Counted from the first letter of the stretch, positions 2,676 to 50,923 are shown. The stretch is 64,000 nt of DNA from an uncultured virus (IMG/VR IMGVR_UViG_3300025277_000017) (IMGVR_UViG_3300025277_000017); one strand, 5' to 3'. The notes: generated from the sequence alone by a model not told the origin. Translations and numbers: made by a program.

Positions 2676-3110
2676 CTATTTTTTAACCAAACTTCCACCA
2701 AAATACAATCCGACGATCGCAGCCATAAGGTGCGTGTCCATTGGCGTTATGACAACACCGGCGAACTGCCTGTCAACAAGCATTTCCTTCTGCTCTATGA
2801 GGAACAAGAAACCTCTACTGAACTCCGTCCATGTGAGAAATACCGATACGTCAAAGAAGACCGGCACTATCTTTGGCCATACGATTATGAAGAATACCGC
2901 CGTCAGCGCGATTATCCTCCTTGTCCATGTAAATCCTTTGTTATCATATTGTCTTGCCTTTTCAATCGCGTCCATCTGGAATTTTCCGCGTGCGAGAAGC
3001 ATCTTCTGCTCCGCCTGTTTCGCCTTGATCGACTGTCCCCAGATGGTCATGAAACCACCCAGAAGGGAGGACCCTAGCATTGTGACCATTTCAACGGGCA
3101 ATCCAAACAT
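2676..3110 (-). CDS. Membrane protein, holin-like
   Basis: Three hydrophobic segments, WTRR motif, ends GLYFGGSLVKK. Confidence 0.55.
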   Translation of the reverse strand: MFGLPVEMVTMLGSSLLGGFMTIWGQSIKAKQAEQKMLLARGKFQMDAIEKARQYDNKGFTWTRRIIALTAVFFIIVWPKIVPVFFDVSVFLTWTEFSRGFLFLIEQKEMLVDRQFAGVVITPMDTHLMAAIVGLYFGGSLVKK

Positions 3111-4018
3111 TAGCTTAACCTCAGTAAACTTACTATTCCACCGCGTTTGGCGAACTGTGTACTATGCACGTTAATCATCGCCTGCTGCAAGTTGGCCTGT
3201 GGGGTATAGTAGTTCGCCATTTGCTCAACTGGATTTCCTCTTCGTGGGTCTCCGTAATATCCGGTGCCTCCACCGCCACCGCCGCCACCGCTATCCCAAT
3301 ACGACGTCGCCGATTGGTCAGTTTTTGCCAGATCCTGCGCAGTGCGTTCGTCCCAGTAGGCATCTTTCGCTGTTCCGTAATCAAAGTCCGTTTGACCTTG
3401 GTACTGGTCCATCAACGACTTTCCCAGTCCGGTATATATATATTGTGGGCTTATTTTCTGATCATATTCATCAGTCCTTTTTCCAGTCATAATAGGATCC
3501 CCCCCATATGCCGTTGTAACAATGCTGGGCATTCCAAACTGGTCACGCCATGCAGCGCTCCCCAGTATTTCTTCTTCTGTAAATCCTTTTTCTTTATTTA
3601 CTCTAATAAATTCTTTTCCTTCCCAGCTTTTAGCGTATTTTTCCTGACCTGCTTCCAGGGAAGCTAATTGCTGTATTCTTTCTAGTTCAGTCATTGACTC
3701 CCAAGCCTGCTGTTCTGAAGGGGTTGCTGCTGGGGTTGTCGGGGTTGATGGTCCTAATCCCAATTTTTCCCTTCTTACATCAGGAATTCCACTAACATAA
3801 TCCTTTAATACTTGAGCCGCCGCAGTGTTCCCTTCTCCTTTTGCTTCTAATTCTCTAAGCTTTTTTTCAAACTTATGCTCGCCTGTTCCGCCTGTTTCAC
3901 CTTTTGGTCCACCATCAGGTGTCGTTGATCCACCATTACCAGAAGAATATGGTGTTCCACCATGAGTGGCTCCAGCAGTGGTTGGGCCACCATAATTAGG
4001 TCCTTGTACCCACACCAT
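3110..4018 (-). CDS. Putative internal virion protein
   Basis: 302 aa, Gly-rich, ends FAKRGGIVSLLRLS. Confidence 0.6.
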   Translation of the reverse strand: MVWVQGPNYGGPTTAGATHGGTPYSSGNGGSTTPDGGPKGETGGTGEHKFEKKLRELEAKGEGNTAAAQVLKDYVSGIPDVRREKLGLGPSTPTTPAATPSEQQAWESMTELERIQQLASLEAGQEKYAKSWEGKEFIRVNKEKGFTEEEILGSAAWRDQFGMPSIVTTAYGGDPIMTGKRTDEYDQKISPQYIYTGLGKSLMDQYQGQTDFDYGTAKDAYWDERTAQDLAKTDQSATSYWDSGGGGGGGGTGYYGDPRRGNPVEQMANYYTPQANLQQAMINVHSTQFAKRGGIVSLLRLS

Positions 4019-5346: not shown

Positions 5347-5580
5347 TTAACATTGTTTATCTTTCATACCACCACTTACTCGACCTCCATGGTGATATTT
5401 CTTCTTCATCATTCCACCTTTTTTCTTCTTCACCGTTCCACCTGCTTTATATTTTTTCTTTGTTCCACCCTTCTTGTATCCGGCCATGTTGACCTTCTGT
5501 CCTGTGGCACGCGCATGCTTCTGTGCCTGTTGCACTCCAGCTGAAGTGTATGGAAATTTTTTACTTCCTACCTTTGGCAT
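5347..5580 (-). CDS. Small Lys-rich protein with xxGG repeats
   Basis: Start reassigned to MPKVGSKKFPY (GGAGG SD); YKKGG, YKAGG, KKKGG, YHHGG. Confidence 0.8.
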   Translation of the reverse strand: MPKVGSKKFPYTSAGVQQAQKHARATGQKVNMAGYKKGGTKKKYKAGGTVKKKKGGMMKKKYHHGGRVSGGMKDKQC

Positions 5581-5719: not shown

Positions 5720-5997
5720 TAATGTAAGGTTGGTTTCTCGCCTTCCCGAAAAAATTCTATAAGTTCTTCCTGGATATGAAAACTTTGAGCAACGGCCTCG
5801 AACATTCGTGAAGCGTCAAAAGGGCCCAATGCCTCAACATACATGTTGCGGGTCACTGCCAACAACGCACCACAAACTTGCAAATAGTCTTCATTGGAAC
5901 TTATCTCTTCCTTCGCTACCTGTTCAATCTTTTGCATCACTGTGCTAAGTTTTTCAAGTTGTTTTTTTATTCTGTCCGTTTGCTTTTGATCTTGCAT
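5719..5997 (-). CDS. Hypothetical protein
   Basis: 92 aa overlapping the portal 3' end; ends KPTLH. Confidence 0.7.
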   Translation of the reverse strand: MQDQKQTDRIKKQLEKLSTVMQKIEQVAKEEISSNEDYLQVCGALLAVTRNMYVEALGPFDASRMFEAVAQSFHIQEELIEFFREGEKPTLH

Positions 5998-8518
5998 TTT
6001 CCCTTGCTATTCTTTCAGCTGATTGATTTTTCCTTTCAGCCACTTCATTCTTCATGGCTTCCCTAGTGGCCGCCATGTTCTCTTTCAGAAGCGCCATTGC
6101 TTCCGTGGAATCTTCCTTATTAACATCTGCTGACGCTTTCATCAAGTCAATACTTGTTTCCGCTTCCAGCTTGTCCCTTTCAAGGTCAAGTTTTTCAGCG
6201 TCCACCATCATGTCCTTCTGCAATTTCATTTGCGTTTCCATTGCCTTTAGGTCAATTTCTTGCTGTTTAAGCTTGATTAGTGGATCTTGAGCTTCTCGTT
6301 TCATTCTAGCCTCTTCGTCTTGCGCCAGTTGTTGAGTCATTTGTGCTTCAATTTGTGCCTGTTCAGCAGCCTGCTGATTTACTAATTGATCCTGTTGCTG
6401 TTGCAATTGTTGCATTGCTTGTAGATTCTGTTGTGCCTGTTGCATTTGCTGCTGCAACTGTTGCAATTGTTGTTTATATTTTTCTTGTACCTGTTGCCCC
6501 GCAATCAATGAGATATGCTCCGATACGTGTGCCTGCAGCATAGCGTACAACTGCGGATTGATCTGCACCATTCTTGTAAACATAAACTCGGCGTGTGCCT
6601 GCATATGCGCCATGTGGTCCTGCATTGGAAATGACTTTGGCTCTTTTCCACGCATTGCACCGGCATTCTCCATTGCCGGACTCATGGGTTCCGGAATCTC
6701 CGGATCCGGCTTCAGTATCGCTTCAACGTTGTCAACACCCATCGCGTCATACATTCTTCTGTATGCCTCGCGCAAATTATGAAGCTGCGGTGCGGCACTT
6801 GCCAATTGCAGTTGCTGCTGCGCCAGCGTAACACGCTGCGCCATTGAGAATATATTCGGATCGGATACTGGAATAACATCAATACGGTCATCAAAATCCG
6901 ATTGCTTAATTTCCTGATTTCCACCAACAACCATGTAAGGATATTGAGGTGGAAGATAAATCTGAAATACTTTTGCCAGTAACTTGAATTCAATCTTCTG
7001 TGCATAGTGCAGTCGCTTGTGTATTGCACTCATGACTTTTGTTCCACGCTCTAAAAGAGCAAGTGTTGTTCCTACAGGATTTTGCTCGTTTCCTTCTCCC
7101 ATTTTCATGTCCGCAATCGCAGCAAAAGATTTTCCTGCGTCAACTGCAAATCCTAAAAGAGCAAACAGAACCTGTGATGGTTCCTTGTAGGGAAGTGGTA
7201 ATAGTGATTCCTTGATTGAAACTCCTGTAACATCCACATCACGAAATTCTCCTGGCTGTAAAGGCTCATCATGGTCGCGTATACGCATTCCTCGTGCCTT
7301 GAAACCTGCTGGCAGATTGGCAAGAGTACCTGCATCAATTAACTGCCGCAAAACACTTGTTGCAGTTCTTGACAATCCACCTAGCATATGTATTAGACCA
7401 AAGCCGTAAAAGCCCAGTCCTGGGAGGAACTTGTAGTGTACAAAATAGTGGTTCTTTACAAAGTTTGGATCATTCTGTTTCCAGTTTCTTCTTATGGAAA
7501 GAACCGTCCTTGAAAATTGGTCTATTGAAACTATGTAGGGAAGCTTTACGCCGGACGTGTCCTCAAATCCGGGGATGTCGGCATTAACATGCATCTCCAG
7601 TATGACATGCTCGTCATCATCGGATGAATAATTCTTTTCAACACCATGCAATTCATCAACCTTATCAACAGTATCGGATGACTCCGTCTGTCCTGTTGGA
7701 AGTTCCACGTCACGGTAGAATCCACCCAGTTGCTGCTTTCTTACATCATTTCCGTTTGTCTTTATGACATGCGTTATTCTATCTGCACTTTCCAGATCCG
7801 TTGCCATGTAGTTGATTACCAAATCCTCACTGGTAATGAACTTTGCCACCGCACGTTTTAATAATCCATCATAATATACTTTCTTGAACGCCGATCCTGA
7901 AAGTGGAAGATAAAACAGCAGTTGGTCCATGTCCGGATCGTACTCACGCATGACATCAGTAATCTGATAGTTCATGAATTGCTGCACCCTCTTCGCCTGA
8001 TCTTGAACTTCAGGTGTCGAGAGTCCTACAACTTGGGTACGAACGGGGCCGCTTGGGGGGAGAAGTTCCTTATACGCTTGGGCTTGAAACTGTGTAACAG
8101 ATTCAGCGAGTAAGGGGTGAACGACCCCGGACGCTCCTTCGAACGGTTGGGTACGGTCTTCATACTTGAAGCCCATCATATCAAGGCCTTTGACATAGGA
8201 TTCCTCCCAGTCCTTCCTTGAATCCTTATCCGATTCGAATCCTGCAAGCAGGTCGTTTGACAACCTACCTAACTCATTATCTTCAATATAGTCCGCCAGA
8301 TTCGCATCATGCGGAATATTTGCTGTGTCTATTGGCGCGTTGGGATCAAAATTAACGTCTGCACTTCCATCCTCATTTTCCATCAATTCAATGTCCGGAT
8401 CAAACTTAACACTTTTATCCAGTTCCAGTTGCACCTCTTCGCCGGCTGGCTCTATGTCCAAAGCCCCCGTCAGCGCCTCTAACGCCTTGTCTATGTTATT
8501 TTTTCTATTGTCTGCCAT
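5954..8518 (-). CDS. Portal protein
   Basis: 854 aa; GASGVVHPLLAESVTQFQAQAYKELLP, GSAFKKVYYD, Q-rich C-terminal coil as in P22-like portals. Confidence 0.9.
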   Translation of the reverse strand: MADNRKNNIDKALEALTGALDIEPAGEEVQLELDKSVKFDPDIELMENEDGSADVNFDPNAPIDTANIPHDANLADYIEDNELGRLSNDLLAGFESDKDSRKDWEESYVKGLDMMGFKYEDRTQPFEGASGVVHPLLAESVTQFQAQAYKELLPPSGPVRTQVVGLSTPEVQDQAKRVQQFMNYQITDVMREYDPDMDQLLFYLPLSGSAFKKVYYDGLLKRAVAKFITSEDLVINYMATDLESADRITHVIKTNGNDVRKQQLGGFYRDVELPTGQTESSDTVDKVDELHGVEKNYSSDDDEHVILEMHVNADIPGFEDTSGVKLPYIVSIDQFSRTVLSIRRNWKQNDPNFVKNHYFVHYKFLPGLGFYGFGLIHMLGGLSRTATSVLRQLIDAGTLANLPAGFKARGMRIRDHDEPLQPGEFRDVDVTGVSIKESLLPLPYKEPSQVLFALLGFAVDAGKSFAAIADMKMGEGNEQNPVGTTLALLERGTKVMSAIHKRLHYAQKIEFKLLAKVFQIYLPPQYPYMVVGGNQEIKQSDFDDRIDVIPVSDPNIFSMAQRVTLAQQQLQLASAAPQLHNLREAYRRMYDAMGVDNVEAILKPDPEIPEPMSPAMENAGAMRGKEPKSFPMQDHMAHMQAHAEFMFTRMVQINPQLYAMLQAHVSEHISLIAGQQVQEKYKQQLQQLQQQMQQAQQNLQAMQQLQQQQDQLVNQQAAEQAQIEAQMTQQLAQDEEARMKREAQDPLIKLKQQEIDLKAMETQMKLQKDMMVDAEKLDLERDKLEAETSIDLMKASADVNKEDSTEAMALLKENMAATREAMKNEVAERKNQSAERIARENARSKANGQNKKTT

Positions 8519-11500
8519 GTGCGGCTATTCCCCCTCTCCTGTACGCCGGAAGTCCTTTCGAAATTTTAAACAACGCCTCGTTATTTCCCTTCAAGTAAAT
8601 CATCGGAACTTTCCAGCCTACACCTTTATCGTCTATTATAGACGTTTCTATAATTTTTGCACCACTTTTCTTTGAAACTTTTCTCAAGGCGTCCTTTACC
8701 ATTGGTCCGTACGCTACAAGGTTTCCGTGGAAACTTTGATCCGTTGGCCGAAGTCCCCTGTTCTTGATTGCGGACGTCGCAACGGCAACGCCGTCATATC
8801 CCCCTTCCTGCGCCATCTTCGTCGCGTACTTGATGACAAACTCATTGTAGTCCTCCGTCTTGCTGTACGGTCCCTGCGGAATCTTGGTTGTCGCCGGAGT
8901 GGCCTTTTTCTTGCTCTCGTCAATTATTTTTCTTATCCTTGTTCTTTCCCTGTTAAGCTTCGCTATTCGTTTTTGAGTTGCCACCGTCTGCGGCTGTGAC
9001 GCCAAGTCATCAATCTTGGCAACAATCAACTTGAACTGTTCCTCATTTACCTTATCCGATGCACTCACGGGAAGCGGAACGTCTCCGCGTGGAGCATAGC
9101 GTGAGTGCATCAGTGTTTGTGGATTAACCGTTTCCCCTCTCTGTAAAGCCTTACTAGCCACCCTCTTCGCCGCGTTGATTGGCTGGTGCATGTCTGACTG
9201 TATTTCCTCTATGAAGAGGATCCTGTTTCCTAACTCATCCGTCCTGTCGGTCATTCGCATGTGAACGAAGGCATTTTCCCCTGCCTTATCAGGCATTCTA
9301 AAGTCATGCGCATATTTGTAAACAGGCTCGCCCTTCCGCATGCTTCCGGGGGTGTACCTGAAGAGGAGCTCGCGTGGGTTCTCGCCTCCACCCAGTGTCT
9401 GCGTTCCTGCAAACTGGGGCTTTCCTGCGTATTCCTTCAGCCCGGCCGTTCTCTTTCCTGCGGCACTGGAAAGCTGCGCAACCATCTTTTTCATGTCAAA
9501 CGGAAAGTTCTTCGGAACGCCGGCATCGAGTGCGTTAGCGACGCCGTAGTTGTCAAATATGTAATTGTCAACGCTCTTAAGTATTGAATCCGCCTCTGTC
9601 CTGAAGAAAGGTTCCGCGCCTTCCTTCAATCCGCGGTTAAGCTGTTCCTCCGCTGATTTCAGGAGCCTGAAGAATCCAGCCTGTTTTTGGTCACGGTATG
9701 CCTGTGGGTCGATTTTGGCGAGGCTTTTTGAAAGTTTTTCCATCATTTCCCCTCCAATCTCTCGTCCGGCAACCTCTACGTCCATCTTCGGCGCAATCCT
9801 GTCAAACGCGTCCGCGAGTACCTTTTTGGGTATGATCTTGTTCTTGTACTGTGATAATAACGGCGCGAGTGAGGTGTCATTCAGTTCCTCATGCCTGATG
9901 GCAGGAAGTTCCTGACTTACCCTTCGCGTTTCATCCGTCACGCCTGCTGACGCACGCTGTTCCAGTTTCAATCTTGCAAGGGTGTCATTCGCCTGCTTAA
10001 CCTTTAATTTATGTGCCTGAAGTAATTTACTTGCGGCAATAACGTCAGGGTGGGAGCTGTTCCCCCTGTGCATTTTCATCAATCCGCCAAAATTTTCTCT
10101 AATACCTTTTCCTTCCGCCATCACCATTCTAAGATTGGTTTCCGCTTCCTTAAACACCGCTTGGGGTTTCATCCCCATCAGATAGTCAAGCCACTGCTGG
10201 CCCGTCATGCCCTCCTGCGGGGAAGCGATGATCTTTTCCCTTGAGCCCCAGAATATGGCTCCTGGCTGATCCGGATCCCCGTATTTTGTTCCTTTTGCTA
10301 TTTTAATTTTTTTACCCACCATTCCAAGATCCACTTCCGGCGCAGGTTCACTTACACCTTCTTTTGTCTTGGGTGGTCGTTTTCCAAATATCTTAAACGT
10401 TGAGGCGTCCTGTGTTCTTAGTTTTGCAAGGTCGTCTAAAGCAAGTTGTGCACCCTCAAGTGTTTGAAAATCCCTATCCAATATTCTAACACCACTCTCA
10501 TCCGTTAATGTGTAAGGACCTTTTGGCGGTTTATACATCCTTGCCTTTGCCGGCCTTGCTCTTGTTGCGTACTGAGTCAACTTTCCTAGAACCTTCGGTG
10601 CGAATTTCATCACTATTCCTCCTCCCGCAAAGCTCTGCGGGTTTGCCCTTATCATTGCCACAGCGTCGTCGACGCTGAATTTTTCCGCCATGCCGCCTTT
10701 GTTCATTCTGGGTGTTATGCCCCAAAAGGAATGTGGGCCTCCATGTTCAAATTGAGAAGGAGAATAATTCCAATAAGGGTCATCAATAGATTCCGTGTAA
10801 CCCCTTCCAGGGGGTCCTACTATTCTATTGTATTTATTAGGATCTTTATCAAACATTGTTGCCCCACCAGTAAAATCTTCTACATTACCCCTCAAAATTT
10901 CTGCAGCGTATTGATAATATGGATGTTTTTCCGTCATATCAAAATCCCAAAAATTAAGATTCTTTTCGCTACGGAAAGGAGTGAATTGACCTTGTCCAGC
11001 AATAACTCTTTTTATTGGAGAATAATTTTCATATCCCTGCAAGCCATAAGTGGTATCAGGTCCTTTATAACTAGCTCTATTTTGAATTACATGTCCAATT
11101 GCTTGTGCATCTCTAAAATTACCCCCACCACCAGGTGAACTTTCAGCATACATCATTCTCGCCAATGCTTCCACATCACTCATATTTTTAAGTTTAATCG
11201 TGCGTCTACTTTCATCTACTTGAGGTTTATAATCACGCATGCTCGTTCCGCCGCGGTAGTATCCGTGTATGCCTTTTCCTCCACGGAACTGATCTTCCCA
11301 TTTCATCATAGCGTCCTCATCAATGGTTTTTTGCATCTGATCAATCTCTTTTTTATATTTTTTTGTTATTGATGACTTGCTGAGCATGTTCTTCATCTTC
11401 CCCACCGTTCCGAACACATTACCAGAAGGTGAGAACGAGTCAACGAAACTCTCAAATATGTTTGAATACGAATTGTCCATGCCATCAACAGATGCGTAAT

Positions 11501-13601
11501 CAACCATCATATCATCCGCATCACCTTTCAATATGCCTAGTTCTCTCTCAAGCTGTGACTTATTTGTAGTAAAAGGGTATTCAATCCAGTCATCCTTCGC
11601 TATGTCCTCTCCGCCGGCCTCCATGTGCCAGTTATCATCAACGAACCTCGTCTCCTTGTTGATCTTGTCAATCACCACGTGCTGGTCGTTGCCGTGGTCG
11701 TAAGCCTTGTTCTTCCATGTTATGGTTGTCTGACCCGGTTCCTCCGTCAAGACCACGTCGTCCCACCATTCATCGCCGCCCTTTGATTTAGGAACCAACT
11801 CCTCGGCCTTCACCTGATCGCTCGTCTTTATCCTGTAATGGCTTTCCGTTCCCGTCTCTCCCCCGTACAACTTGATTTTCTTAGAACCAAGCTTTTGAAC
11901 TTGAGAGTTATTGCCCATCCTGAACACGGTTTTCGCGGTTATAGGAACATCCTTCAATGCTGAAAGCATTCCGTTCACCCACGGTGGGGCAAATGACAGT
12001 GCCGCTTTCTTCGCGGCTGGTGCCGCAAGTTTCATTGCCGATTTTGGAATCGCCGCGGCGGCGGCCGTCGCTCCTACGCCCTTCATGAATTTTCTTCTTG
12101 ACATCATTCCAAGGCTCTCACCCAGAAGCTTCTTGATCAGCCCGCCTCCGGCATAGCCGTTGACTATTCCGCCTTCGTTCATTCCGCTAAATTTAATCTT
12201 TTCCATTTTCTGTGTTTCGGGGTTTAAAAACTTCATTTGTTTTGTAGGATACTGCCTTGGAAGATCCTCCACAAGAGGACGTATAAAACTTTTACTCTGA
12301 TCATACCATTTTCCATAAATTACGTCATCAATATTTGACTGCACCCCTATCGCACGCATGTCATCATCCCATCCTGCCAATTCAAACTCAATTTCCCATC
12401 TTCTATCAGGATCCGTCGTCTCCTTCCTCATCTTTCGCAATTTTCTTACATTAAACTCCGCGGTGCTGTGTTTCATGTTCCTTACCCATGTGGAAAGGGC
12501 TTTCGCCATTTCAGGACTTCTATGCATGCTGAAAGTTTCATGAAGAGCCTGCATGAACGTCCTTCCATGCTTTAAAAGACCCTCCGCCGTCTTCTTTAAT
12601 TCAGGGGTTAGGTTACTTAAAACAATATTATTTAGCTGTTGTTCCCTTTTCTTCCTTCTTGATTTTATTAAGGTAAATTTTTGACTTTGCCTGCTCTTAG
12701 CTTGGGTAAAATGATCCACTGCTTGTCTTAGCCTCCCAGTGGGGGAGACGCTTGATGTAGTTATATCGGTTCCCTTTGGAGTGCCATAACGGCTGATTGT
12801 CTTTTCCAAAGGGGGATTGTGGGCTTTTCTTATACGACTAATTATCGCCTCATTAACTGACGGAATACCTTGAGGGCTGAGACTAGAAAATCTTGGATCC
12901 TTCGCCATGTCGCGCGTGTGAGTGGTTAGATACCTGGGCTGTTTGGTTACTGGGTCTATTTCCTTTAAATAATTTTCAACATCAATTTCTTTTTTTACCC
13001 TGCCTCTAGTCAGTGGATATCTATTTAAGTTTGTTCTTAATGGAAAATCTGGAACAGCTGCTTTAATAGTTCCTGACAGAGTTCCACTTGGTTGTGTAGC
13101 TACTGAAATAGGCCCATACCCTTTCTTAGTTCTTTCCTTGTTAATTAGCCGTGCCAACAATGGGTTAGTAAGCCTGTCCATTCCCATGGGCCTACCCATG
13201 AATTCATAATCACCATATTTTGAATACAAGTTCTTTATAATGGGAATATCTATCAATTGACGCGCATAGTAATCGGTATAAAGAGGCTTATATTCGTCTT
13301 TAATTGTTCTACGTTTACGGCCGGGGATATGCTCTGTGTGTTCTCTAGGAACTTTGACGTTTCCAACATAATAATGTGTTCCTTTTGGCTTTGGTACTGT
13401 ATTTGCTACATATTTATTAACCCCTTTATGTTTCTTTATTTTTACATGGGGTGAATCCCTGTCAAAATAACGCATAGGCCTAGCGCCTGTTTCATCACGC
13501 GACACTCTAACAGCAACATCATTAGGTCTCTTGTTCTTTTGTGTTCTCCCTAATTTAGATAGCTGTTTTAAAGTTAACTCTGCTGCTTTTTTAACTACCA
13601 T
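8505..13601 (-). CDS. Giant multidomain virion protein with cell-wall hydrolase (SleB/Hydrolase_2-like) module
   Basis: 1698 aa; EALARMMYAES..AIGHVIQNR..VIAGQGQF; C-terminal HMRMTDR..LFIEEIQSDMHQ motif of large phage proteins. Confidence 0.75.
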   Translation of the reverse strand: MVVKKAAELTLKQLSKLGRTQKNKRPNDVAVRVSRDETGARPMRYFDRDSPHVKIKKHKGVNKYVANTVPKPKGTHYYVGNVKVPREHTEHIPGRKRRTIKDEYKPLYTDYYARQLIDIPIIKNLYSKYGDYEFMGRPMGMDRLTNPLLARLINKERTKKGYGPISVATQPSGTLSGTIKAAVPDFPLRTNLNRYPLTRGRVKKEIDVENYLKEIDPVTKQPRYLTTHTRDMAKDPRFSSLSPQGIPSVNEAIISRIRKAHNPPLEKTISRYGTPKGTDITTSSVSPTGRLRQAVDHFTQAKSRQSQKFTLIKSRRKKREQQLNNIVLSNLTPELKKTAEGLLKHGRTFMQALHETFSMHRSPEMAKALSTWVRNMKHSTAEFNVRKLRKMRKETTDPDRRWEIEFELAGWDDDMRAIGVQSNIDDVIYGKWYDQSKSFIRPLVEDLPRQYPTKQMKFLNPETQKMEKIKFSGMNEGGIVNGYAGGGLIKKLLGESLGMMSRRKFMKGVGATAAAAAIPKSAMKLAAPAAKKAALSFAPPWVNGMLSALKDVPITAKTVFRMGNNSQVQKLGSKKIKLYGGETGTESHYRIKTSDQVKAEELVPKSKGGDEWWDDVVLTEEPGQTTITWKNKAYDHGNDQHVVIDKINKETRFVDDNWHMEAGGEDIAKDDWIEYPFTTNKSQLERELGILKGDADDMMVDYASVDGMDNSYSNIFESFVDSFSPSGNVFGTVGKMKNMLSKSSITKKYKKEIDQMQKTIDEDAMMKWEDQFRGGKGIHGYYRGGTSMRDYKPQVDESRRTIKLKNMSDVEALARMMYAESSPGGGGNFRDAQAIGHVIQNRASYKGPDTTYGLQGYENYSPIKRVIAGQGQFTPFRSEKNLNFWDFDMTEKHPYYQYAAEILRGNVEDFTGGATMFDKDPNKYNRIVGPPGRGYTESIDDPYWNYSPSQFEHGGPHSFWGITPRMNKGGMAEKFSVDDAVAMIRANPQSFAGGGIVMKFAPKVLGKLTQYATRARPAKARMYKPPKGPYTLTDESGVRILDRDFQTLEGAQLALDDLAKLRTQDASTFKIFGKRPPKTKEGVSEPAPEVDLGMVGKKIKIAKGTKYGDPDQPGAIFWGSREKIIASPQEGMTGQQWLDYLMGMKPQAVFKEAETNLRMVMAEGKGIRENFGGLMKMHRGNSSHPDVIAASKLLQAHKLKVKQANDTLARLKLEQRASAGVTDETRRVSQELPAIRHEELNDTSLAPLLSQYKNKIIPKKVLADAFDRIAPKMDVEVAGREIGGEMMEKLSKSLAKIDPQAYRDQKQAGFFRLLKSAEEQLNRGLKEGAEPFFRTEADSILKSVDNYIFDNYGVANALDAGVPKNFPFDMKKMVAQLSSAAGKRTAGLKEYAGKPQFAGTQTLGGGENPRELLFRYTPGSMRKGEPVYKYAHDFRMPDKAGENAFVHMRMTDRTDELGNRILFIEEIQSDMHQPINAAKRVASKALQRGETVNPQTLMHSRYAPRGDVPLPVSASDKVNEEQFKLIVAKIDDLASQPQTVATQKRIAKLNRERTRIRKIIDESKKKATPATTKIPQGPYSKTEDYNEFVIKYATKMAQEGGYDGVAVATSAIKNRGLRPTDQSFHGNLVAYGPMVKDALRKVSKKSGAKIIETSIIDDKGVGWKVPMIYLKGNNEALFKISKGLPAYRRGGIAAHGRQ

Positions 13602-14978
13602 CTACGGACCTTCCTGGCGCATCCGTAAATATTGATCAAGAAGTTCCAGGCCAGCAGGCGGCACGAAATACTGCCCTCCTAGTTTTCTGGTAAGGTTTAT
13701 ATTCTTAGCTCCTTGGCCTATTAATGACGGTGAAATTTGGCTCATGTAGTTCAACATTTTAGGTGAATTTTTTAATGAATATCTAGCTGCAGCTGGAAGT
13801 CCCATAGTTGCAATTGCATCCCCTATTGTATCAAGCCCATGCAGAAATCCTGCGTTCTCCGGATCGGAATATTTAAGCAACCCACGATCCTCCCAGTTTA
13901 CAAGTAATTCAACAAGGGGGTCGTAGGCGCCGAATGAAAATTCATCACTGTATGGAATTCCAAATCCAGTCATTACATCAGGCGACATGTGGAATCCGTA
14001 CTCGTCCATCATTTCACGCTCATACTCCTTCATGACATATTCACTTACCTGCTCCCCATATCTATCACTGACTTTGTCTGTAAATATATTTGCTACGTCA
14101 TCAGCGTATGCTTTATTCCACTGCTCATATGTCCTGTTCCCTTGCGGATTGTCCATTTCCCATTTTTCTTTGTCCAATTCTTTTTCTGATTTTTTCCACA
14201 GATCTTCCTCAGCGGCTTGTGTCATGAGGTCACTGATATGCCCTTCTTCCCAGTCCCATCCTTTGTCAATCCACTTATTAAGGATATCGTCGCTTAATTT
14301 TGGATCGCGCAATGGGTTTTCATTGTAGCCCGGCCACCATCCCTGAGTTAGATAGTCAAGGTAATACCCCGTCGCACCCGTTCCGGAATGTTCTGACGGA
14401 TCAAAATGTATTCCCATTGGATTGTACCATGATGCGTGCTTTGCCTTTCTGTCTGGATCATCATAGTCCCATAATGCTTCTGTTTCTACGTCCAGCCCAG
14501 CTAATCTTGGAATTGAGCGAGCTGCCTCCTGAATACCCTGTGCCACATACCCCAAGGTATTGACTGGAACTTTCCACATGTCACCTATTTGTCGTTTCCA
14601 GTCACGTTCAGTGTCACCAGCAACGGGAGTTCCTGTCTCATATGATCTGTGCCATTTCTTAAAAGATTCAGGAACTGTTTCTGTTCCCCAATTAACAATC
14701 GCTTCATTTACTGGATCTAGCCAACGGCTAGCTTCTGGATAAATTGACTCGATGACATTCATCGTTGGGCTAATATAATTTCTATCTTTATTACTTTGGC
14801 TATATAAGTCTACACCCACACGTTCAGGTTTTTCCTTAAAAAATCTGTCTGAGACATAATCCTTAATTCCACTGGCCAGGGACACTATTCCGCTGCCAGG
14901 AACTCCCCATATTGCATCACCAAACTCCGGTTTTGATCTTTCCTTATATTTTTTTTTGCTATACTCTTCTATGCCCAT
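13602..14978 (-). CDS. Hypothetical acidic, Trp-rich protein
   Basis: 458 aa, TGATG-coupled to terL. Confidence 0.75.
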   Translation of the reverse strand: MGIEEYSKKKYKERSKPEFGDAIWGVPGSGIVSLASGIKDYVSDRFFKEKPERVGVDLYSQSNKDRNYISPTMNVIESIYPEASRWLDPVNEAIVNWGTETVPESFKKWHRSYETGTPVAGDTERDWKRQIGDMWKVPVNTLGYVAQGIQEAARSIPRLAGLDVETEALWDYDDPDRKAKHASWYNPMGIHFDPSEHSGTGATGYYLDYLTQGWWPGYNENPLRDPKLSDDILNKWIDKGWDWEEGHISDLMTQAAEEDLWKKSEKELDKEKWEMDNPQGNRTYEQWNKAYADDVANIFTDKVSDRYGEQVSEYVMKEYEREMMDEYGFHMSPDVMTGFGIPYSDEFSFGAYDPLVELLVNWEDRGLLKYSDPENAGFLHGLDTIGDAIATMGLPAAARYSLKNSPKMLNYMSQISPSLIGQGAKNINLTRKLGGQYFVPPAGLELLDQYLRMRQEGP

Positions 14979-16441
14979 CAGTAGTATTCTCTCCCCAGTT
15001 GCGCGTGTTCAGTCTTATCATCCTTGAAGTCATCTTTCAAGGAAACATAGTATCCTTGACGATAACGCATCAACGCCTGCGTGGTAGAATCCACGTAGTC
15101 ATCATTGTCTCCGAAGGGGAAGGCCGCGCATTCCTCGATCACTTCCTCAGCGAATTTTTTATTGGGCGCCCATATCGCCCCCGACTCAAAGAGCGGGGCT
15201 ACGCTGTTTACCCTCGAGTGCTTATCGTTGCCTCTTGAGGGTGTGTAATTTATAACAGGTATTCCTGCCTTTTGCAACTCATGAGTTAACGGAAGGCCGG
15301 ATGCCTTCGCCTCTATCAATATCATCTCCGGCTCCCAGTACTTGTACTCCTCCATCGCCTTCTTTTTCAGCTCAGGAAAGTTCCATCGCCCCCTTTTTGC
15401 GTCAAGGAGTATAAGGGACTCCCGGTCGTCCTCCGACGGCGAAAATACGCCCCATGTCGTGATTGCCGAGAAATCGGCCGTCTCTTTTTTCGAATACGCC
15501 GTGTCATAGGACTGAATTATGTATTTCAATTCAGGAATATCGTCTTTTTCCCATTTTTTCCACCATTCACGCTTAATTAGGGCTCCTTCCTCGGAAGTTG
15601 GGTTCTGCATCCACTGCGCGTTCCATTTTGTGAGCGGAATGGACGCTTTTACCTTATTCAGGTTGTCCATGTCCCAAAAATTTCCCCACATTGGCTTTTC
15701 GTTCAAAATAGCCGGAAATTCGACGATTTCCCACTGGTCAGCCATCGCTTCCTTGCCCTGTTCCACCAAAAGCCGTCCTGTTAGGTCCTTTACGGACCAT
15801 CTTGTCATTACAAGGACTATGGCACCGCCAGGTTGAAGACGCTGGCGAGGACCAGAAGTATACCACTCATAATGACCGTCCAGCACAGTAGGAGACAGAG
15901 CATCCTGTTCTGAGTGAGGATCATCAATAACCAGCAAATCGGCACCACGGCCAGTAATAGCGCCCCCGACACCAGCAGCAAAATACTCCCCGCCATGATT
16001 CGACTCCCAACGCCCAGCAGCCTTAGAATCCGCCGCCAAATGGACACCAGGAAAGACTTTAGCATATTCATCCGACTCCAATAAGTTCTTTGTCTTGCGA
16101 CCGAAGCGAATTGATAGCTCTCCGGTGTGTGTTGTTTGTATCAGCTTTGCCTTTGGGTGTCTACCCATGAAAAATGCGGGGAACAAATGTGACGCGAACT
16201 CCGATTTTGTGTGCCTTGGCGGCATGTTTACGATTAACCGCTTCAATTCGCCATTTGCAACGCGGTTCAGCTTCTCAGCATAGATTCTGTGGTGATATCC
16301 CTCGATAAAATCGGGCCAAACGGACTTTACAAAGGTCAAAAAGTCCTTTTGTGTTGCTTCCTGCTTATCTAATATTGCGTTTTTAAGGATATATTTCAAA
16401 GTTTGGGTGTCCAAACTTTCCAATTTAGAAATGTTTTGCAT
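14978..16441 (-). CDS. terL: Terminase large subunit
   Basis: MPPRHTKS Walker A, LLVIDDP Walker B, VMTRW, SYDTA and DDYVDS nuclease motifs. Confidence 0.95.
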   Translation of the reverse strand: MQNISKLESLDTQTLKYILKNAILDKQEATQKDFLTFVKSVWPDFIEGYHHRIYAEKLNRVANGELKRLIVNMPPRHTKSEFASHLFPAFFMGRHPKAKLIQTTHTGELSIRFGRKTKNLLESDEYAKVFPGVHLAADSKAAGRWESNHGGEYFAAGVGGAITGRGADLLVIDDPHSEQDALSPTVLDGHYEWYTSGPRQRLQPGGAIVLVMTRWSVKDLTGRLLVEQGKEAMADQWEIVEFPAILNEKPMWGNFWDMDNLNKVKASIPLTKWNAQWMQNPTSEEGALIKREWWKKWEKDDIPELKYIIQSYDTAYSKKETADFSAITTWGVFSPSEDDRESLILLDAKRGRWNFPELKKKAMEEYKYWEPEMILIEAKASGLPLTHELQKAGIPVINYTPSRGNDKHSRVNSVAPLFESGAIWAPNKKFAEEVIEECAAFPFGDNDDYVDSTTQALMRYRQGYYVSLKDDFKDDKTEHAQLGREYY

Positions 16442-20661: not shown

Positions 20662-20967
20662 TCACAGCGCAATACCAATACCTTTACTAGTAATGATGAT
20701 TGACCTCTTCATATATGGAATTAACCTAACATATCCGCGCTTTTTTAAGCTATGCACGAAGGCATGTATACGACTTTTCGACTTATAGTTCAATACCTGT
20801 TTCATCTCCTCATAGGAGGGTGAATACCCATTTTGGTCCATAAAATCGGCTAAAAACTTGAGAAATTTGGCCTGCTTGGGGGTCAATCCAAACTGATCCT
20901 TGCCAATACCTTTGCCAATACCTTCCTGGTTTACGTATTTTATTTCATTTTCCGTTAATTTTACCAT
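20662..20967 (-). CDS. LexA-type DNA-binding domain without peptidase
   Basis: LTPKQ..NGYSPSYEEM..SKSRIH..LKKRGYV..RSI. Confidence 0.85.
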   Translation of the reverse strand: MVKLTENEIKYVNQEGIGKGIGKDQFGLTPKQAKFLKFLADFMDQNGYSPSYEEMKQVLNYKSKSRIHAFVHSLKKRGYVRLIPYMKRSIIITSKGIGIAL

Positions 20968-23366: not shown

Positions 23367-24071
23367 TTATGCATTGATCCCCTTCACCGGTCCGTCCAGC
23401 TTGAAGTGCACGTTGAATGACATTGATCTTCTTTCACCCTCAGACCTAAACGGGTAGACCTGGTGTGCCAGCCATGACGGAAACAAATAAAAGTCCCCAA
23501 CCACGGGCTTCACCACATAGCTGTGTCGCGCAAAATGGTTTGGAATTGATCCCAGGAATTCCAAACATCCCGCCGTTGGATGGTGGTCCTCCTTCTCATA
23601 CTCTTCCTTAAATCCTGGTGGGATCTTAAGAAACGCCACCCCGGAGAGGTTAGCGTCATGTATGTGTATGGGATTGAAGTCACCAGCATACTGTGATACC
23701 ACCCACACGCTGAAGGATACCTTCGCCTTGTCACTCAATCCTTCCGGGAGAACGCGCTTGATGTACTCATGCGCCATCGTGATGAGAAACTCGGGAAAAC
23801 CCTTGATCTCGTTGTGGTTGATCGCAACCTCCTTCTTGACGTTGCCGGCGAGGTTATGGGACCAGTCCCTTTCCTTGCTCAGCTTCTCGTCATGCAGGAT
23901 TTCGTCCGCCTGCACGTTGAGAAGGTTGACATAGCCCTGCGGCATGTTGACCTTCAGGATGCTCGGCCCAAACGGCTGGTAGATGTCGTACTGTATCTCT
24001 TTCTCAGCCAGGGTCTGTTCCCTCCCATTTGTCGAAGTCATATCCTGCGTCTTCAAATTCCTCGTCGTCAA
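23367..24071 (-). CDS. 2OG-Fe(II) oxygenase family protein
   Basis: FNPIHIH, LSGVAFL, LFPSWLAHQVYPF, RRSMSFN; true start may be 24041. Confidence 0.85.
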   Translation of the reverse strand: MTTRNLKTQDMTSTNGREQTLAEKEIQYDIYQPFGPSILKVNMPQGYVNLLNVQADEILHDEKLSKERDWSHNLAGNVKKEVAINHNEIKGFPEFLITMAHEYIKRVLPEGLSDKAKVSFSVWVVSQYAGDFNPIHIHDANLSGVAFLKIPPGFKEEYEKEDHHPTAGCLEFLGSIPNHFARHSYVVKPVVGDFYLFPSWLAHQVYPFRSEGERRSMSFNVHFKLDGPVKGINA

Positions 24072-27310: not shown

Positions 27311-27514
27311 ATGACTACAGGAAAAATTAAATGGTTTAATCCAGCCAAAGGATATGGATTTATTGAAAACGGAACAGGAGGCAAGGATGTCTTTCTGCAT
27401 GTATCGGCTTTGGAAAAGGCGGGTATTGACACACTAAAAGAAGGAGAAGAGATAGAATTCGATATAGGGGAGAACAAGGGAAAAGAAAACGCCATTAACA
27501 TTAAAAAGATGTAG
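27311..27514 (+). CDS. cspA: Cold-shock protein
   Basis: GKIKWFN..KGYGFI (RNP1), DVFLHVSAL (RNP2). Confidence 0.95.
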   Translation: MTTGKIKWFNPAKGYGFIENGTGGKDVFLHVSALEKAGIDTLKEGEEIEFDIGENKGKENAINIKKM

Positions 27515-27526
27515 GTTTTAGGGTGT

Positions 27527-28003
27527 TTAGTCTTTGCGTGATCCGTACGATTGAATTACTTTCAGCATCGAATGAACGCCATTTCTCCTACCAGGAGTCA
27601 AAAGATTATCAAGGCTCAAACCGTCTAATTCTTTTTCTTCAAAGGATGCTATATCGCTTCTTGTAGAATTACTGAAAACATCAGCAAGAAGGCATACCAT
27701 TCCCTTTGATATCAACGCAGCTGAATCGGCCGTAAAATAAATCTTGTCATCATATGTAAAATGTGGAACCAGCCATGTCTGTGACTGGCAACCTGGGACC
27801 TCAAACTCCGGTAATTTGAACCGCTCCGGCACGATCGCCGACTTCTTCCCGAAGTCCATCAGCCACGTGTAGCGGTCTATCATCTCATCCATGTCATTGA
27901 GCAGGTCTATGTAGGTTTTCAGCTTGCTTTGAATGGTGGATACAGGATCGACATTGGTAATCTTGCAATCCCCCAGAATCTTCATTACCTCTTCAGTCTT
28001 CAT
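27527..28003 (-). CDS. sufE: SufE-like sulfur acceptor
   Basis: RYTWLMDFGK, VPGCQSQTW, ADSAALISKG, LTPGRRNG. Confidence 0.9.
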   Translation of the reverse strand: MKTEEVMKILGDCKITNVDPVSTIQSKLKTYIDLLNDMDEMIDRYTWLMDFGKKSAIVPERFKLPEFEVPGCQSQTWLVPHFTYDDKIYFTADSAALISKGMVCLLADVFSNSTRSDIASFEEKELDGLSLDNLLTPGRRNGVHSMLKVIQSYGSRKD

Positions 28004-28293
28004 TACCCACTTCCTTTCAAAATTTTATTTACATAATCGTTAATGGGCTCAAGCTTGTCCTGCATCTCTTCAGATGGGGTTCTCTCTTCCTTCTGCCTGA
28101 TGGAATCTTTTAACCCCATATCAAGTAACTCCTTTTCCTCCAGCATTTTGGTATAAAAATCTTTTGGCTCATATAAAAATTTTGTGTAGCAGTATTCACA
28201 TACGGCCTTGTTCTCCTTGTCCACTGTGTACCACACAATAGGATGGTCATCGCCGCATGAAAATGTTTTGGTATGAATTACTTTGGGTTTCAT
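28003..28293 (-). CDS. zf-CHCC-type zinc-finger protein
   Basis: FSC..DHPIVW..AVCEYC. Confidence 0.75.
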   Translation of the reverse strand: MKPKVIHTKTFSCGDDHPIVWYTVDKENKAVCEYCYTKFLYEPKDFYTKMLEEKELLDMGLKDSIRQKEERTPSEEMQDKLEPINDYVNKILKGSG

Positions 28294-37797: not shown

Positions 37798-39237
37798 ATG
37801 TACAAATTTAAAACAGAGCCATACGAGCATCAAAAGGATGCACTAAAAAAATGCTGGAACAAGGAGTCATTTGCAGTGTTCGCAGAAATGGGAACAGGCA
37901 AGACCAAGATAGCGTTGGACAACGCTTGCATATTATACAACAAGGGAAAGATTGATCGTGTTCTTGTGATAGCTCCCAAGGGAGCCTACATGACATGGGT
38001 GGAACAAGAAATTCCAGCACACGTTCCGGATTATATAGAAAAGAAAGTACTCGCCTGGAAACAGTCCACGAGCCAGAAATACAAAGCGCAATTGAAGGAC
38101 ATAATGGATATTCAGGATTATAAATTAAAAATTATGGTCATGAACGTGGAAGCTTTTTCCACGAAAAAAGGGACTGACTTTGCCAGATTATTCCTGATTG
38201 GTCGTTCAATGATGATCGTGGATGAAAGCACTACCATAAAAAATCCACAGGCAAAAAGAACCAAATCAATATTGAAATTGGGAAAGGATACCAAATACAG
38301 AAGAATACTGACTGGATCCCCAGTTACCCGGTCGCCCATGGATCTCTGGTCACAGATGGATTTCCTGAACCCGGAAATACTGGAGCAATCAAGCTATTAT
38401 GCATTCAGGACTCGCTATGCAATCATGGTCACGTCAAATGCAGCCGGCGGAACGCATACATACCAGCGTATCGTCAAGTTTCAGAACCTAAAGCAACTGG
38501 GGGAGCTAGTAGCACCCCATTCATACCGCATATTGAAGAAGGACTGTCTTGACTTACCAGATAAGGTATATACCAAACGTGAGATAGAATTAAGTGATGA
38601 ACAAAAAGAGGCGTATGTGGATATGAAAGCTAACGCTATAGCTACCCTTAAAGGGCAATCCATGACTGCAGTTAACGTCCTTACCCAACTGATAAGGCTT
38701 CACCAGATAACGTGCGGTCATATGAAAACAGATGCCGGCCATACCATAGATCTTAGAAGCAACAGAATAGATGAACTAATGCAGATTTTGGGTGAGACAA
38801 CCGGAAAGGTGATTATATGGGCAAATTACATACATGACATTGAAAAGATTGAAGCTAATATAGCCTTAAGCGATTTCGGAGCAGATTCTCTGTGCACTTA
38901 TTACGGCGCAACACCAGCCGATAAAAGGCAGGAATGCATCCGAAAGTTCCAGGACCCAGATTCAAAGGTAAGATTTTTTATTGGTAACACCCAAACTGGC
39001 GGATACGGTATTACCCTTACCGCCGCAAGCACGGTGATCTACTATTCAAACAATTATGATCTGGAAAAGAGAATACAGTCAGAGGATCGTGCTCACCGCA
39101 TAGGGCAGAAGAACAAGGTACTGTACATTGATCTAATGTCAAAAGGGACTGTGGATGAAAAAATCATACAGTCCCTTCGAAGCAAGGTTAACATCGCCAA
39201 AGAAATCAGTGGCGAGGAACTTATTGCTTGGATTTAA
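37798..39237 (+). CDS. SNF2-family helicase
   Basis: EMGTGKT, VDEST, LTGSP, GYGITLT, QSEDRAHRIGQ. Confidence 0.92.
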   Translation: MYKFKTEPYEHQKDALKKCWNKESFAVFAEMGTGKTKIALDNACILYNKGKIDRVLVIAPKGAYMTWVEQEIPAHVPDYIEKKVLAWKQSTSQKYKAQLKDIMDIQDYKLKIMVMNVEAFSTKKGTDFARLFLIGRSMMIVDESTTIKNPQAKRTKSILKLGKDTKYRRILTGSPVTRSPMDLWSQMDFLNPEILEQSSYYAFRTRYAIMVTSNAAGGTHTYQRIVKFQNLKQLGELVAPHSYRILKKDCLDLPDKVYTKREIELSDEQKEAYVDMKANAIATLKGQSMTAVNVLTQLIRLHQITCGHMKTDAGHTIDLRSNRIDELMQILGETTGKVIIWANYIHDIEKIEANIALSDFGADSLCTYYGATPADKRQECIRKFQDPDSKVRFFIGNTQTGGYGITLTAASTVIYYSNNYDLEKRIQSEDRAHRIGQKNKVLYIDLMSKGTVDEKIIQSLRSKVNIAKEISGEELIAWI

Positions 39238-39619
39238 TTTTTATTTGTTTTGGTTTTTCGGATTCCGGAATTTCCCGTTTATAAGTAACTTTAAGAAGTC
39301 CATCCTTTAGCTCCGCTCCATTAATCATAATGTGTTCATGAAGCTGGAATTTTTTGATAAAACTCCTATCAGAAATTCCTTTATGCCAAAAATCTTCTGA
39401 GGTTTTTTCTTCTTTACACCCAGAAACATGTAAAGTTTGCTCTTTTACTTCAACTTTCAAATCTTTCTCAGCGAACCCTGCAACAGCAAATTCAATGACG
39501 CCTAAGTCATCTTTTTCTTTAATGTTGTATGGGGGATAAGTTGAGACTCTTTTGAAACCGTCAAAAAAGTCGTTGTGGAAACCAAGAAAATGGTTACGTA
39601 TAATATCTAGCTCGTTCAT
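39221..39619 (-). CDS. Small heat-shock protein (Hsp20/IbpA-like)
   Basis: YPPYNI, EFAVAGF, HKGISDRSF, AELKDGLL, PKQIKI. Confidence 0.93.
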   Translation of the reverse strand: MNELDIIRNHFLGFHNDFFDGFKRVSTYPPYNIKEKDDLGVIEFAVAGFAEKDLKVEVKEQTLHVSGCKEEKTSEDFWHKGISDRSFIKKFQLHEHIMINGAELKDGLLKVTYKREIPESEKPKQIKIKSKQ

Positions 39620-40349: not shown

Positions 40350-41279
40350 TTATAGCACAAGTGAGACCAATCCGCCAGTGTTATAATTGTATCCAGGAGG
40401 CCCTTGATTTGGATATCTATGGGGGTGTTGATCATGCTGGAGGAAAGCCCCAGTATGCTTACCAGGAAGCATGCCGGCACGCTCTGCTTCATGTTTAGCG
40501 GTCCTCATCAAGTTTCCTCCCCATCCAAGTTCTTTTTGACCCATATTTCCTACCATCTCATAAGCATTCCGCACTGTTTGTGGGTTTTGACCGTACACGG
40601 CTCCTGTGGCGTATATGGGTATATGCTGTACCTCACCTGGAGAATACTGTATAGTTGCTTGACGGTTGGGGTCATAGGCTTGGTATTTATCCGTAAAAGC
40701 CTTCCATGTTTTTGATTTGCTTGGAACACCTGTATCTCTCCCCGTAAACCAGTGTTTTTTATTTTCTCTAATCCCTAAGTACTGATCCCACAATGGATGC
40801 TTATACTCGTGCCTGTAGACGTCGGAGATAAAGCTCTGAAGAGACCCCTTACTTGGATCCCAATCACCAATTATCTCGCTTAAATTAATATCCATTCTAG
40901 TCCTTGGATCATCATCAGGATCAAAGGGGTCATCGACATCCACTTGCCCCCAATAACGGTTTCCTTCTGGGGATTCTTTCAATCTTCCTTTCTTTTGCTC
41001 CTCATCATAGAGGTATCTCATGGGTCCTTCCATGGTGTGCTTTCTTAATCCCATGAGGGCCATCTCATCATAATCATAGAGTGATGTACCCAATCCTTCC
41101 ATCAGTTTCGATCGTTCAGTAGCACTAAGTTCATCGGAAGGTTTTCCATACATGATGTCATCGTACATGTCCTGTTCGAACTCGATGTCACCCAGTCCGG
41201 CTTGCAATAGCCAGTCTGGGTCGTTGTATAAATGATCTATGACAGATGAACTACTGAGATTTGAGGTTCTGTTTGCCAT
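40350..41279 (-). CDS. Putative internal virion protein, possible HExxH metalloprotease
   Basis: YRHEYKH; ends YNTGGLVSLVL. Confidence 0.6.
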   Translation of the reverse strand: MANRTSNLSSSSVIDHLYNDPDWLLQAGLGDIEFEQDMYDDIMYGKPSDELSATERSKLMEGLGTSLYDYDEMALMGLRKHTMEGPMRYLYDEEQKKGRLKESPEGNRYWGQVDVDDPFDPDDDPRTRMDINLSEIIGDWDPSKGSLQSFISDVYRHEYKHPLWDQYLGIRENKKHWFTGRDTGVPSKSKTWKAFTDKYQAYDPNRQATIQYSPGEVQHIPIYATGAVYGQNPQTVRNAYEMVGNMGQKELGWGGNLMRTAKHEAERAGMLPGKHTGAFLQHDQHPHRYPNQGPPGYNYNTGGLVSLVL

Positions 41280-41830
41280 TATCTCTTACCTCCAGGAAAT
41301 GGTATCACGTTGGCCCCACTCGCCGCGTCCTGCCTTCGCTGTCTCGCGAGGGCGATCATGTATTTCTCGTAGTCGGTGAGTCCACGCACGCGCATGTTTC
41401 TTTTCGCCATCTGCGCGATCGCGTTCTGTGCCAGCTCGTCCACGTATTCCTGTCCCCCGAACTCACCCCAGTAGGTCCTTCCCGCCTCGTTCATCTTGGC
41501 GTACTCATCTGGGTTCGCGCGGTACCAGTTGATGAGGTCCTTTGTCGTTCTTTCACTGTTGAGTCTCGCCTTCATCGTCTGCATTATTCCGCTGTAGGGC
41601 GTCGCCTTGTTCTCCGGTGTTACATACTTTGACGCGTTTCGCAGAAGCCCTTCCGCCGCACCCATCCTTGATGAAAGCGCCACTCCATAAGGATACCACG
41701 CTTCATACGCGGTTTCATTCTTCAATGTCTGGACGTGACGGTCCTTTGGATATTGCTTAGCTATGGCAAGGACGCGACGCATCGCCTCCTTGCCATACTT
41801 TTTGCCGATCAGTGATAGTACTCCGTACAT
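41279..41830 (-). CDS. Hypothetical protein
   Basis: 183 aa, ends NVIPFPGGKR. Confidence 0.75.
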   Translation of the reverse strand: MYGVLSLIGKKYGKEAMRRVLAIAKQYPKDRHVQTLKNETAYEAWYPYGVALSSRMGAAEGLLRNASKYVTPENKATPYSGIMQTMKARLNSERTTKDLINWYRANPDEYAKMNEAGRTYWGEFGGQEYVDELAQNAIAQMAKRNMRVRGLTDYEKYMIALARQRRQDAASGANVIPFPGGKR

Positions 41831-41849
41831 TCTCCCCCCAAGCGGCCCC

Positions 41850-47969: not shown

Positions 47970-47971
47970 TT

Positions 47972-49452: not shown

Positions 49453-49455
49453 TAT

Positions 49456-50921: not shown

Positions 50922-50923
50922 TA

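Follow-up and report, generated by a model that had tools for sequence, protein, structure and literature searches.

GG motifs bound exchangeable cassettes in a likely injected cargo polyprotein of an uncultured podophage

Results

A protein built of exchangeable cassettes

The 64,000-nucleotide stretch analysed here (the window) represents almost all of the 64.6-kb record of an uncultured marine virus, IMGVR_UViG_3300025277_000017, from which the capsid gene region is absent. The minus strand of the window carries, between the terminase module and the portal gene, a modular open reading frame (ORF; 8505..13601, from ORF calling and a cysteine count) for a cysteine-free protein of 1698 residues, in which six copies of a short motif, [YFM]-x-[KREG]-G-G, delimit four blocks designated A, B, C and D. 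Comparison with homologous sequences revealed that A, B and C have been gained, lost and swapped at or just beside these motifs, demonstrating cassette exchange. The protein is likely an injected, processed cargo polyprotein, and cleavage at the motifs is, judging from the sequence, somewhat probable.

All six motifs, located by pattern search, pair alignments and contig divergence, lie on the minus strand at the places where an earlier sequence-only reading had divided the ORF into four blocks. Motif 1 (MNEGG, residue 474, 12168..12182) ends block A and motif 2 (YAGGG, residue 483, 12141..12155) starts block B, being followed by a basic aliphatic stretch; motif 3 (YYRGG, residue 781, 11247..11261) forms the B/C joint; motif 4 (MNKGG, residue 966, 10692..10706) ends block C and is separated by a 20-residue spacer (10632..10691) from motif 5 (FAGGG, residue 991, 10617..10631), which starts block D and again precedes a basic aliphatic stretch. 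Motif 6 (YRRGG, residue 1687, 8529..8543) is found seven residues before the stop codon. These sites account for six of the 22 GG positions of the protein, and the pattern is matched six times against 0.18 expected, a number reached in none of 5000 shuffles. The shuffle test is circular, since the pattern was fitted afterwards, and conservation provides the non-circular one.

Homologues were taken from viral contigs and from a protein collection (66 matches, of which three weak ones and one self-match were removed before counting), and the motifs were scored with a permissive pattern inside position windows. Among the 83 sequences with both B and D, a set that takes in the 1698-residue protein itself and some near-duplicates, motifs 3 and 5 are present in all 83, motif 4 in 82 and motif 6 in 79. 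Motifs 2 and 1 were detected in 61 and 33 of them, respectively, the lower counts being due to the many sequences that are shortened, start at B or possess just one motif at this place. Specific residues are retained at five to seven motif positions. The codons of the GG pair, on the other hand, vary synonymously (GGA-GGN in only 49 of 243), hence the constraint acts on the protein and a Shine-Dalgarno origin of GG is ruled out for the internal motifs. The codons of motif 6 double as a purine-rich stretch 10 nt ahead of the portal start; this terminal motif may serve also as the portal ribosome site, yet tails of 13-24 residues exist in other proteins.

The 70 C slots compared are occupied by SLT-like (41), Hydrolase_2-like (23) and a third kind (6) of domain, with no BLAST links between the classes over the last 115 residues; the SLT cargo matches internal-virion lysozyme PHROGs, and the third class has only a weak match to an endolysin PHROG. 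C is missing from 13 of the 83 sequences with B and D, motifs 3 and 4 being fused to one, while a homologue without B (P0036) has motif 1 joined to motif 3 and yet another (P0063) carries a different insert between two motifs. On a D-core tree (75 rows, quick method) the C class requires 20 changes, a value between the minimum of 3 and the shuffled mean of 33.3; it is therefore clustered but has been swapped many times. The D cores of P0003 and P0004 are identical and their C classes different; P0055 and P0058 share 99%, 100%, 13% and 96% identity in A, B, C and D, respectively, with the switch inside the motifs; P0045 and P0044 differ by a swap of A only, at the motif; and the 1698-residue protein has B-D in common with L010, the identity in A being only 10% and the agreement starting at MNEGG.

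Unanchored local alignments, the pairs of which are not mutually independent, break near the motif in 35 of 64 pairs at B/C, 17 of 30 at C/D and 32 of 41 at A/B, and none of the 64 B/C alignments ends before GG. Among contigs assembled from sequencing runs, those of X1 and X6 diverge at 12177, in motif 1. Five of eight runs gave contig joints in which block C is replaced (10682/10694 to 11229); these are weak evidence, because the short side measures only 20-24 letters. Motifs 3 and 4 are spanned without a difference by contigs from runs that possibly represent the source sample, so that an assembly chimera is unlikely there. The exchangeable cassettes proposed from the sequence alone are thus confirmed, and colinearity across the GG sites, named in advance as the finding that would speak against them, was not seen among the homologues compared.

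Block A (residues 1-473, 12183..13601) is a basic, variable cargo slot with an H...N...N pattern as in HNH nucleases, recognised by eye. Seven BLAST classes were distinguished among 52 A slots, and the pattern is common to many of them; in an HNH profile search of 10 A regions the best Pfam match had an E value of 0.14, in one homologue, and the 1698-residue protein gave none. Block B (residues 488-780, 11262..12140; profile search with 51 matches) comprises a signal and a beta-rich domain. Its model (predicted local distance difference test score, pLDDT, 71; best Atlas value 0.77) had no match at E<=0.001 in a viral structure library.

Block C (residues 786-965, 10707..11246) resembles SleB/Hydrolase_2 cell-wall hydrolases and is placed, as the sequence-only reading had it, exactly between YYRGG and MNKGG. 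It scored just below the Pfam Hydrolase_2 (PF07486) cut-off of 27 bits (25.4 bits, E 2e-5), a cut-off which same-class homologues P0024 and P0044 pass. The same reading held this block to be AT-richer than its flanks, in agreement with the G+C content at third codon positions (GC3; 40/180 in C vs 165/293 in B and 362/691 in D, p 4e-15), which is lower in C than in D in 14 of 18 loci. Block A, which the reading had passed over in this respect, is likewise AT-richer (164/473).

Block D (residues 996-1686, 8544..10616) is the constant part and contains an EEIQSD-containing domain also present in large polyvalent phage proteins. At E<=0.001 its modelled core (pLDDT 83) matched 18 viral models, three of which bear a large polyvalent protein annotation, and the domain occurs in a 2756-residue LPD22 protein (P0065), which has no motifs. 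A search against the PDB gave no match at E<=0.001, only weak acetyltransferase rows, while a wide search gave coiled-coil matches; a GNAT-like D core would be an unproven guess from the model. An insert of ∼90 residues inside D (9909-10154) is not motif-bounded. The full 1698-residue protein has a single Pfam match (the Tat signal described below) and no PHROG matches, and no named LPD, MPTase or hub domain was matched in Pfam, PHROG or NCBIfam.

Blocks are also encoded separately in some relatives. In split loci a gene made up of an A-like domain, a motif and a different basic module lies upstream of B-D or D (L086:1032-2669, L097:1-1782, L098:1-1560, L087:4842-6083). At L052:918-956 a frame break, natural or due to a sequencing error, falls in the spacer between motifs 4 and 5, and the D gene then begins eight residues before the motif. 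Hence two marks of a polyprotein, a sequence-specific motif at domain joints and blocks existing as separate genes, were found, and the hydrolase cassette and the D domain represent the at least two disparate effector domains that characterise polyvalent proteins.

Stretches following the motifs and the Tat-like signal of block B

The 16 residues after each motif were scored for being basic and aliphatic, the gene sets used for comparison being chosen by hand. Such a stretch follows the second motif of the two pairs in 95% of 37 and 93% of 61 distinct versions, respectively. After YYRGG the value is 3% of 65 and after MNKGG 4% of 45, random windows giving 9% of 2739. A basic aliphatic N-terminus was also found in six of 13 cargo-region genes of the window vs one of 31 other genes, in line with the likeness to the N-termini of stand-alone genes that had been seen in the sequence at the outset.

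Block B opens with an internal signal resembling those for twin-arginine translocation (Tat; 11997..12104), consisting of SRRKFMK, ∼12 uncharged residues and a basic Ala-rich stretch. Located at residue 501 of the protein, 14 residues after a motif, it exceeds the cut-offs of both Pfam PF10518 (23.1 bits; cut-off 22.7) and TIGR01409 (20.9; cut-off 16.7). The consensus [ST]RRxF[LMIV] fits 71 of 75 B copies, and 17 of 21 B-bearing homologues match the Pfam Tat model at E<=0.01. The arginines follow GG by 11-22 residues in fused proteins and are found at residue 8 in five genes that begin with B and have the signal as their natural N-terminus (L087, L090, L101, L103, L104), that of L087 lying directly after a stop codon. 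The uncharged run after RR has a median length of 12 residues and is weakly hydrophobic (mean best 12-mer 1.0).

The block B profile search also retrieved P0115, a protein of 733 residues from an apparently unrelated phage, in which each of two tandem units consists of an LNE leader and then the same Tat-like segment as in block B. It is one sequence without context and has no relatives in the viral contigs. Its LNE resembles what we take to be a T4-type head-protease site.

Motifs in other genes and in cultured relatives

A matrix built from the six sites and scanned over 68 ORFs of the window yielded 10 sites vs 1.6 expected, i.e. the six training sites and four in other late-region genes. 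In the portions of HTVC023P, HTVC027P and DSL-LC04 that were scanned, six (1.5 expected), eight (0.6) and eight (1.6) sites were found, respectively, and in Caulobacter phage RW only two vs 1.0. Two of the HTVC027P matches, in the terminase and another gene, are outside the cargo slots.

Four motif-bearing genes of the window, all on the minus strand, were examined individually. In the product of 49833..50921 residues 288-344 match the tape measure GG-GEFV element in a profile search; this protein is Cys-free, and in five aligned copies its GG-GEFV end is invariant and its middle varies. Both 3110..4018 and 40350..41279 are Cys-free genes with a C-terminal motif, the latter having an HExxH-like stretch and only identical copies. 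It was considered as a protease and rejected as not conserved, being found at only two identical loci. A short basic peptide with several motif copies (5347..5580) is conserved behind the portal in many loci; being Lys-rich, it could be a DNA-condensing or internal peptide.

Not a single cysteine was found in the 139,443 residues of 139 homologous sequences, and 26 of 51 window proteins of at least 120 residues are Cys-free, including portal, scaffold-like and ejection genes. Its place between terminase and portal, its lack of cysteine and the domain shared with polyvalent proteins make the polyprotein likely virion cargo.

The same gene slot of the cultured Pelagibacter phage HTVC027P encodes gp42 (L028:17212-19890), which has GG motifs, a helix-turn-helix-like region and, at the C-terminal end, a module that begins with a Tat-like segment of the KR type. 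This module is present at 80 loci in 49 distinct versions, 36 of which have a GG motif within 30 residues. Its profile matches B with 94%, a value that rests on the signal alone (1.4% without it).

Genome context

According to profile scans of the window ORFs, the virus encodes a terminase (14978-16441), a portal protein (5954-8518), GroES, and tail and ejection proteins. On the evidence of its sequence it is a podophage with a portal closest to those of HTVC023P-type pelagiphages, the identity to the portals of HTVC027P and HTVC023P being 54-58%; such phages resemble podoviruses, as stated in the available part of a preprint (bioRxiv 10.1101/2019.12.14.876532). A host assignment via three short contigs of metagenome-assembled genomes was dropped, these being probably misbinned phage DNA. 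The immediate neighbours of the 1698-residue ORF are a 458-residue gene and the portal gene, and cultured relatives have different proteins in the terminase-portal slot. The gene between the terminase and the ORF (13602-14978) is Cys-free and variable in sequence, with 331-579 residues among relatives.

A run of Cys-free genes around the ejection proteins (40350-51511) is broken by a GNAT acetyltransferase (49000-49452), and an RPNIG.DR stretch is common to 42050-42589 and 50924-51511. A conserved 155-residue head gene matched no named family, and a tail protein contains a long internal duplication (59184-61733). At 27311-28293 lie genes of host-like character that encode a cold-shock protein, SufE and a zf-CHCC finger, and Hsp20 (39221-39619), a 2OG-Fe(II) oxygenase (23367-24071) and a LexA-type DNA-binding domain (20662-20967) are encoded as well.

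Discussion

In the mechanism that we favour, the polyprotein would be packaged in the head, cut at the motifs by a protease and injected as separate pieces. Cuts after motifs 2 and 5 would leave B and D with basic amphipathic N-termini resembling those that free cargo genes encode, and a short spacer would be lost from between the motifs of a pair. Block C would act as an entry muramidase, representing one of three interchangeable chemistries, and B, once released, would pass to the Tat translocase of the host or bind to it. The use of Tat after unmasking, and with it the whole chain of steps, seems rather doubtful. The sequence-only reading had the cassettes released by cleavage: the cassettes stand, whereas their release goes no further than being probable, having gained the Tat-like signal behind a motif as an argument.

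Several observations weigh against processing and Tat use. The window ORFs that were scanned yielded no peptidase family, the record lacking the capsid gene region and many ORFs being unannotated. Terminal motifs sit 3-24 residues before the C-termini, and stand-alone D genes (L086, L097 and L098, consisting of D only) retain a leader of 17-20 residues and the motif, neither of which is explained by domain separation alone. In ∼45% of the B/C and C/D pairs the unanchored alignment breaks away from the motif and extends into cargo; the ∼90-residue insert of D, present in 12 of 107 sequences, has no motif at its edges; and the A-slot classes, rather than being unrelated, may be distant HNH relatives. 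As regards the signal, only three of the 21 scanned B-bearing homologues exceed the Pfam Tat cut-off, and KR replaces RR in 48 of 49 versions of the gp42-type module, which has no Pfam Tat match and the mature domain of which does not align with B. The fixed KR in the HTVC027P group weakens a strict Tat reading. Moreover, internal uncleaved Tat signals (class IV/V) exist, according to the accessible text of PMC13673990.

Several unrelated Cys-free proteins also have the motif at their end, and short basic peptides contain it repeatedly, which would fit equally well with a strand for docking or loading that attaches to the procapsid or the ejection apparatus, fused genes keeping their tags and the protein being injected whole. 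Such a role agrees with the retention of leader and motif by stand-alone D and with the failure to find a protease in the ORFs scanned, but it leaves an internal Tat-like signal with neither a free N-terminus nor a membrane anchor, and the N-terminus-like stretches of B and D right after motifs 2 and 5 unexplained. We therefore regard docking without cleavage as rather unlikely. The two roles are not exclusive, as the capsid-targeting sequence of T4 is presumably tag and cut site at once, and a loading tag and a cut site could coexist here. The motif, in turn, opens the tape measure GG-GEFV element, which overlaps a 'hook' region predicted in JBD30, as described in the available part of PMC11445458; this also favours docking.

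It is improbable that the chain is not a virion protein at all but a late cytoplasmic polyprotein of lysis or host takeover, from which B-C would be cut off and the muramidase exported by Tat as an endolysin. A Tat-like signal does stand upstream of a cell-wall hydrolase in the same chain, the sequence after motif 3 is not N-terminus-like, and no separate endolysin family was found among the window ORFs scanned. B is, however, found without C in 13 homologues and C without B in P0036, the SLT cargo matches lysozymes from inside virions, and both the lack of cysteine and the domain shared with polyvalent proteins favour virion cargo. Alternatively, proteolysis might be dispensed with if B arose from an internal translation start, in keeping with an in-frame Met-Met right before the signal in the 1698-residue protein and a Met between motif and RR in 39 of 61 fused copies. 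Since the other 22 have no Met there, L057 lacking all three common start codons (ATG, GTG and TTG), an internal start is not the general answer. The whole chain might also be an uncleaved class V Tat substrate, of a kind known from the accessible part of PMC13673990, but a Kyte-Doolittle value of 1.6 over 19 residues was reached in none of 62 signals and none of 51 full-length proteins in a simple hydropathy scan, and an uncleaved membrane anchor is therefore unlikely. Both explanations leave the other motifs unaccounted for and seem quite improbable. That the motifs are mere flexible linkers, or boundary sequences conserved to serve recombination, we consider highly improbable: where a conserved block borders on a variable one, a breakpoint has indeed to fall at the conserved edge, but neither idea accounts for the residue-specific conservation with synonymous codon variation, nor for the same motif at the C-termini of unrelated proteins and in cultured relatives.

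As a tentative generalisation, a widespread marine podophage lineage might use an undescribed GG processing code for plug-and-play injected polyproteins, in which the cut would unmask a host Tat signal, so that one injected piece would be re-exported to the periplasm or occupy the Tat translocase; cleavage in lambda-type tape measure proteins, long unexplained, may be due to the same code. Processing of injected phage polyproteins is presumed, with cut sites rarely known; the GG motif offers a concrete candidate with residue-level evolutionary support, and motif-bounded cassettes would explain how phages swap entry enzymes.

Two well-known processing systems invite comparison. In T4, the internal proteins and Alt carry a capsid-targeting sequence cut by gp21 at an [IL]xE site, and there, as in the window phage, a short recurrent motif on unrelated cargo is likely both address and cut site. 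The T4 motif is N-terminal, whereas that of the window, a podophage, is GG, internal and C-terminal, and no gp21-like protease was found in the scanned ORFs. African swine fever virus (ASFV), adenovirus and virophages process polyproteins at GG|X by a cysteine protease of the Ulp1/adenain type; like the chain proposed here, their core proteins arise from precursors with double-glycine sites, short basic peptides among them, and the window virus differs in being a tailed phage with no Ulp1/adenain-type protease detected in the window ORFs scanned.

Phage polyvalent proteins are likewise large multidomain chains with a peptidoglycan-attacking domain, and they share with the 1698-residue protein the likely role as capsid cargo and, in an LPD22 protein, the D domain. 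In contrast to them, no zincin MPTase or peptidase domain was found in the window chain, which has at its joints a GG motif that is absent from P0065, and a Tat-like signal is not met in the available part of the account of this class (PMC5512222). The same text proposes processing for the class, including P1 DdrB and N4 vRNAP; DdrB is processed and N4 vRNAP, which tells against cleavage here, is packaged unprocessed, therefore membership of the polyvalent class does not decide the matter (PMC5512222).

The tape measure protein gpH of lambda has FATGG at residue 733 and YATGG at residue 778. It loses ∼14 kDa from its glycine-rich C-terminal region, the site and the enzyme being unknown according to the available part of PMC12617516, so that the GG motif becomes a candidate for the gpH cut site. 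The cut, however, is estimated there at ∼690-710, upstream of the motif at residue 733; the fit is hence loose, and motif and cut site may not be the same. In the 1698-residue ORF, furthermore, the motif stands bare, not followed by the GEFV element of tape measure proteins, whereas 49833-50921 has GG-GEFV. Two leads were abandoned: the accessible text of PMC10172136 and PMC10136315 has no passage on a KxGG site in crAssphage, and that of PMC1796659 and PMC4351075 none on tape measure processing at GG in mycobacteriophages. No account of the GG motif or of a phage-borne Tat signal was found in the open-access literature searched, and the present data point to phage use of the host Tat pathway. 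In the accessible part of an article on HTVC023P-type genomes (PMC9599517), the words protease, peptidase, hydrolase, lysozyme, internal and Tat were searched for and do not occur.

Unlike the window protein with its RR, the HTVC027P group has KR, and a tblastn search with block D returned no match among 50,697 phage records. The HTVC023P-type pelagiphages resemble the window virus in combining a similar portal with a protein in the same slot that has GG motifs ahead of a Tat-like segment, and in HTVC027P and Pelagibacter HTCC1062 a cultured pair with a similar layout is at hand.

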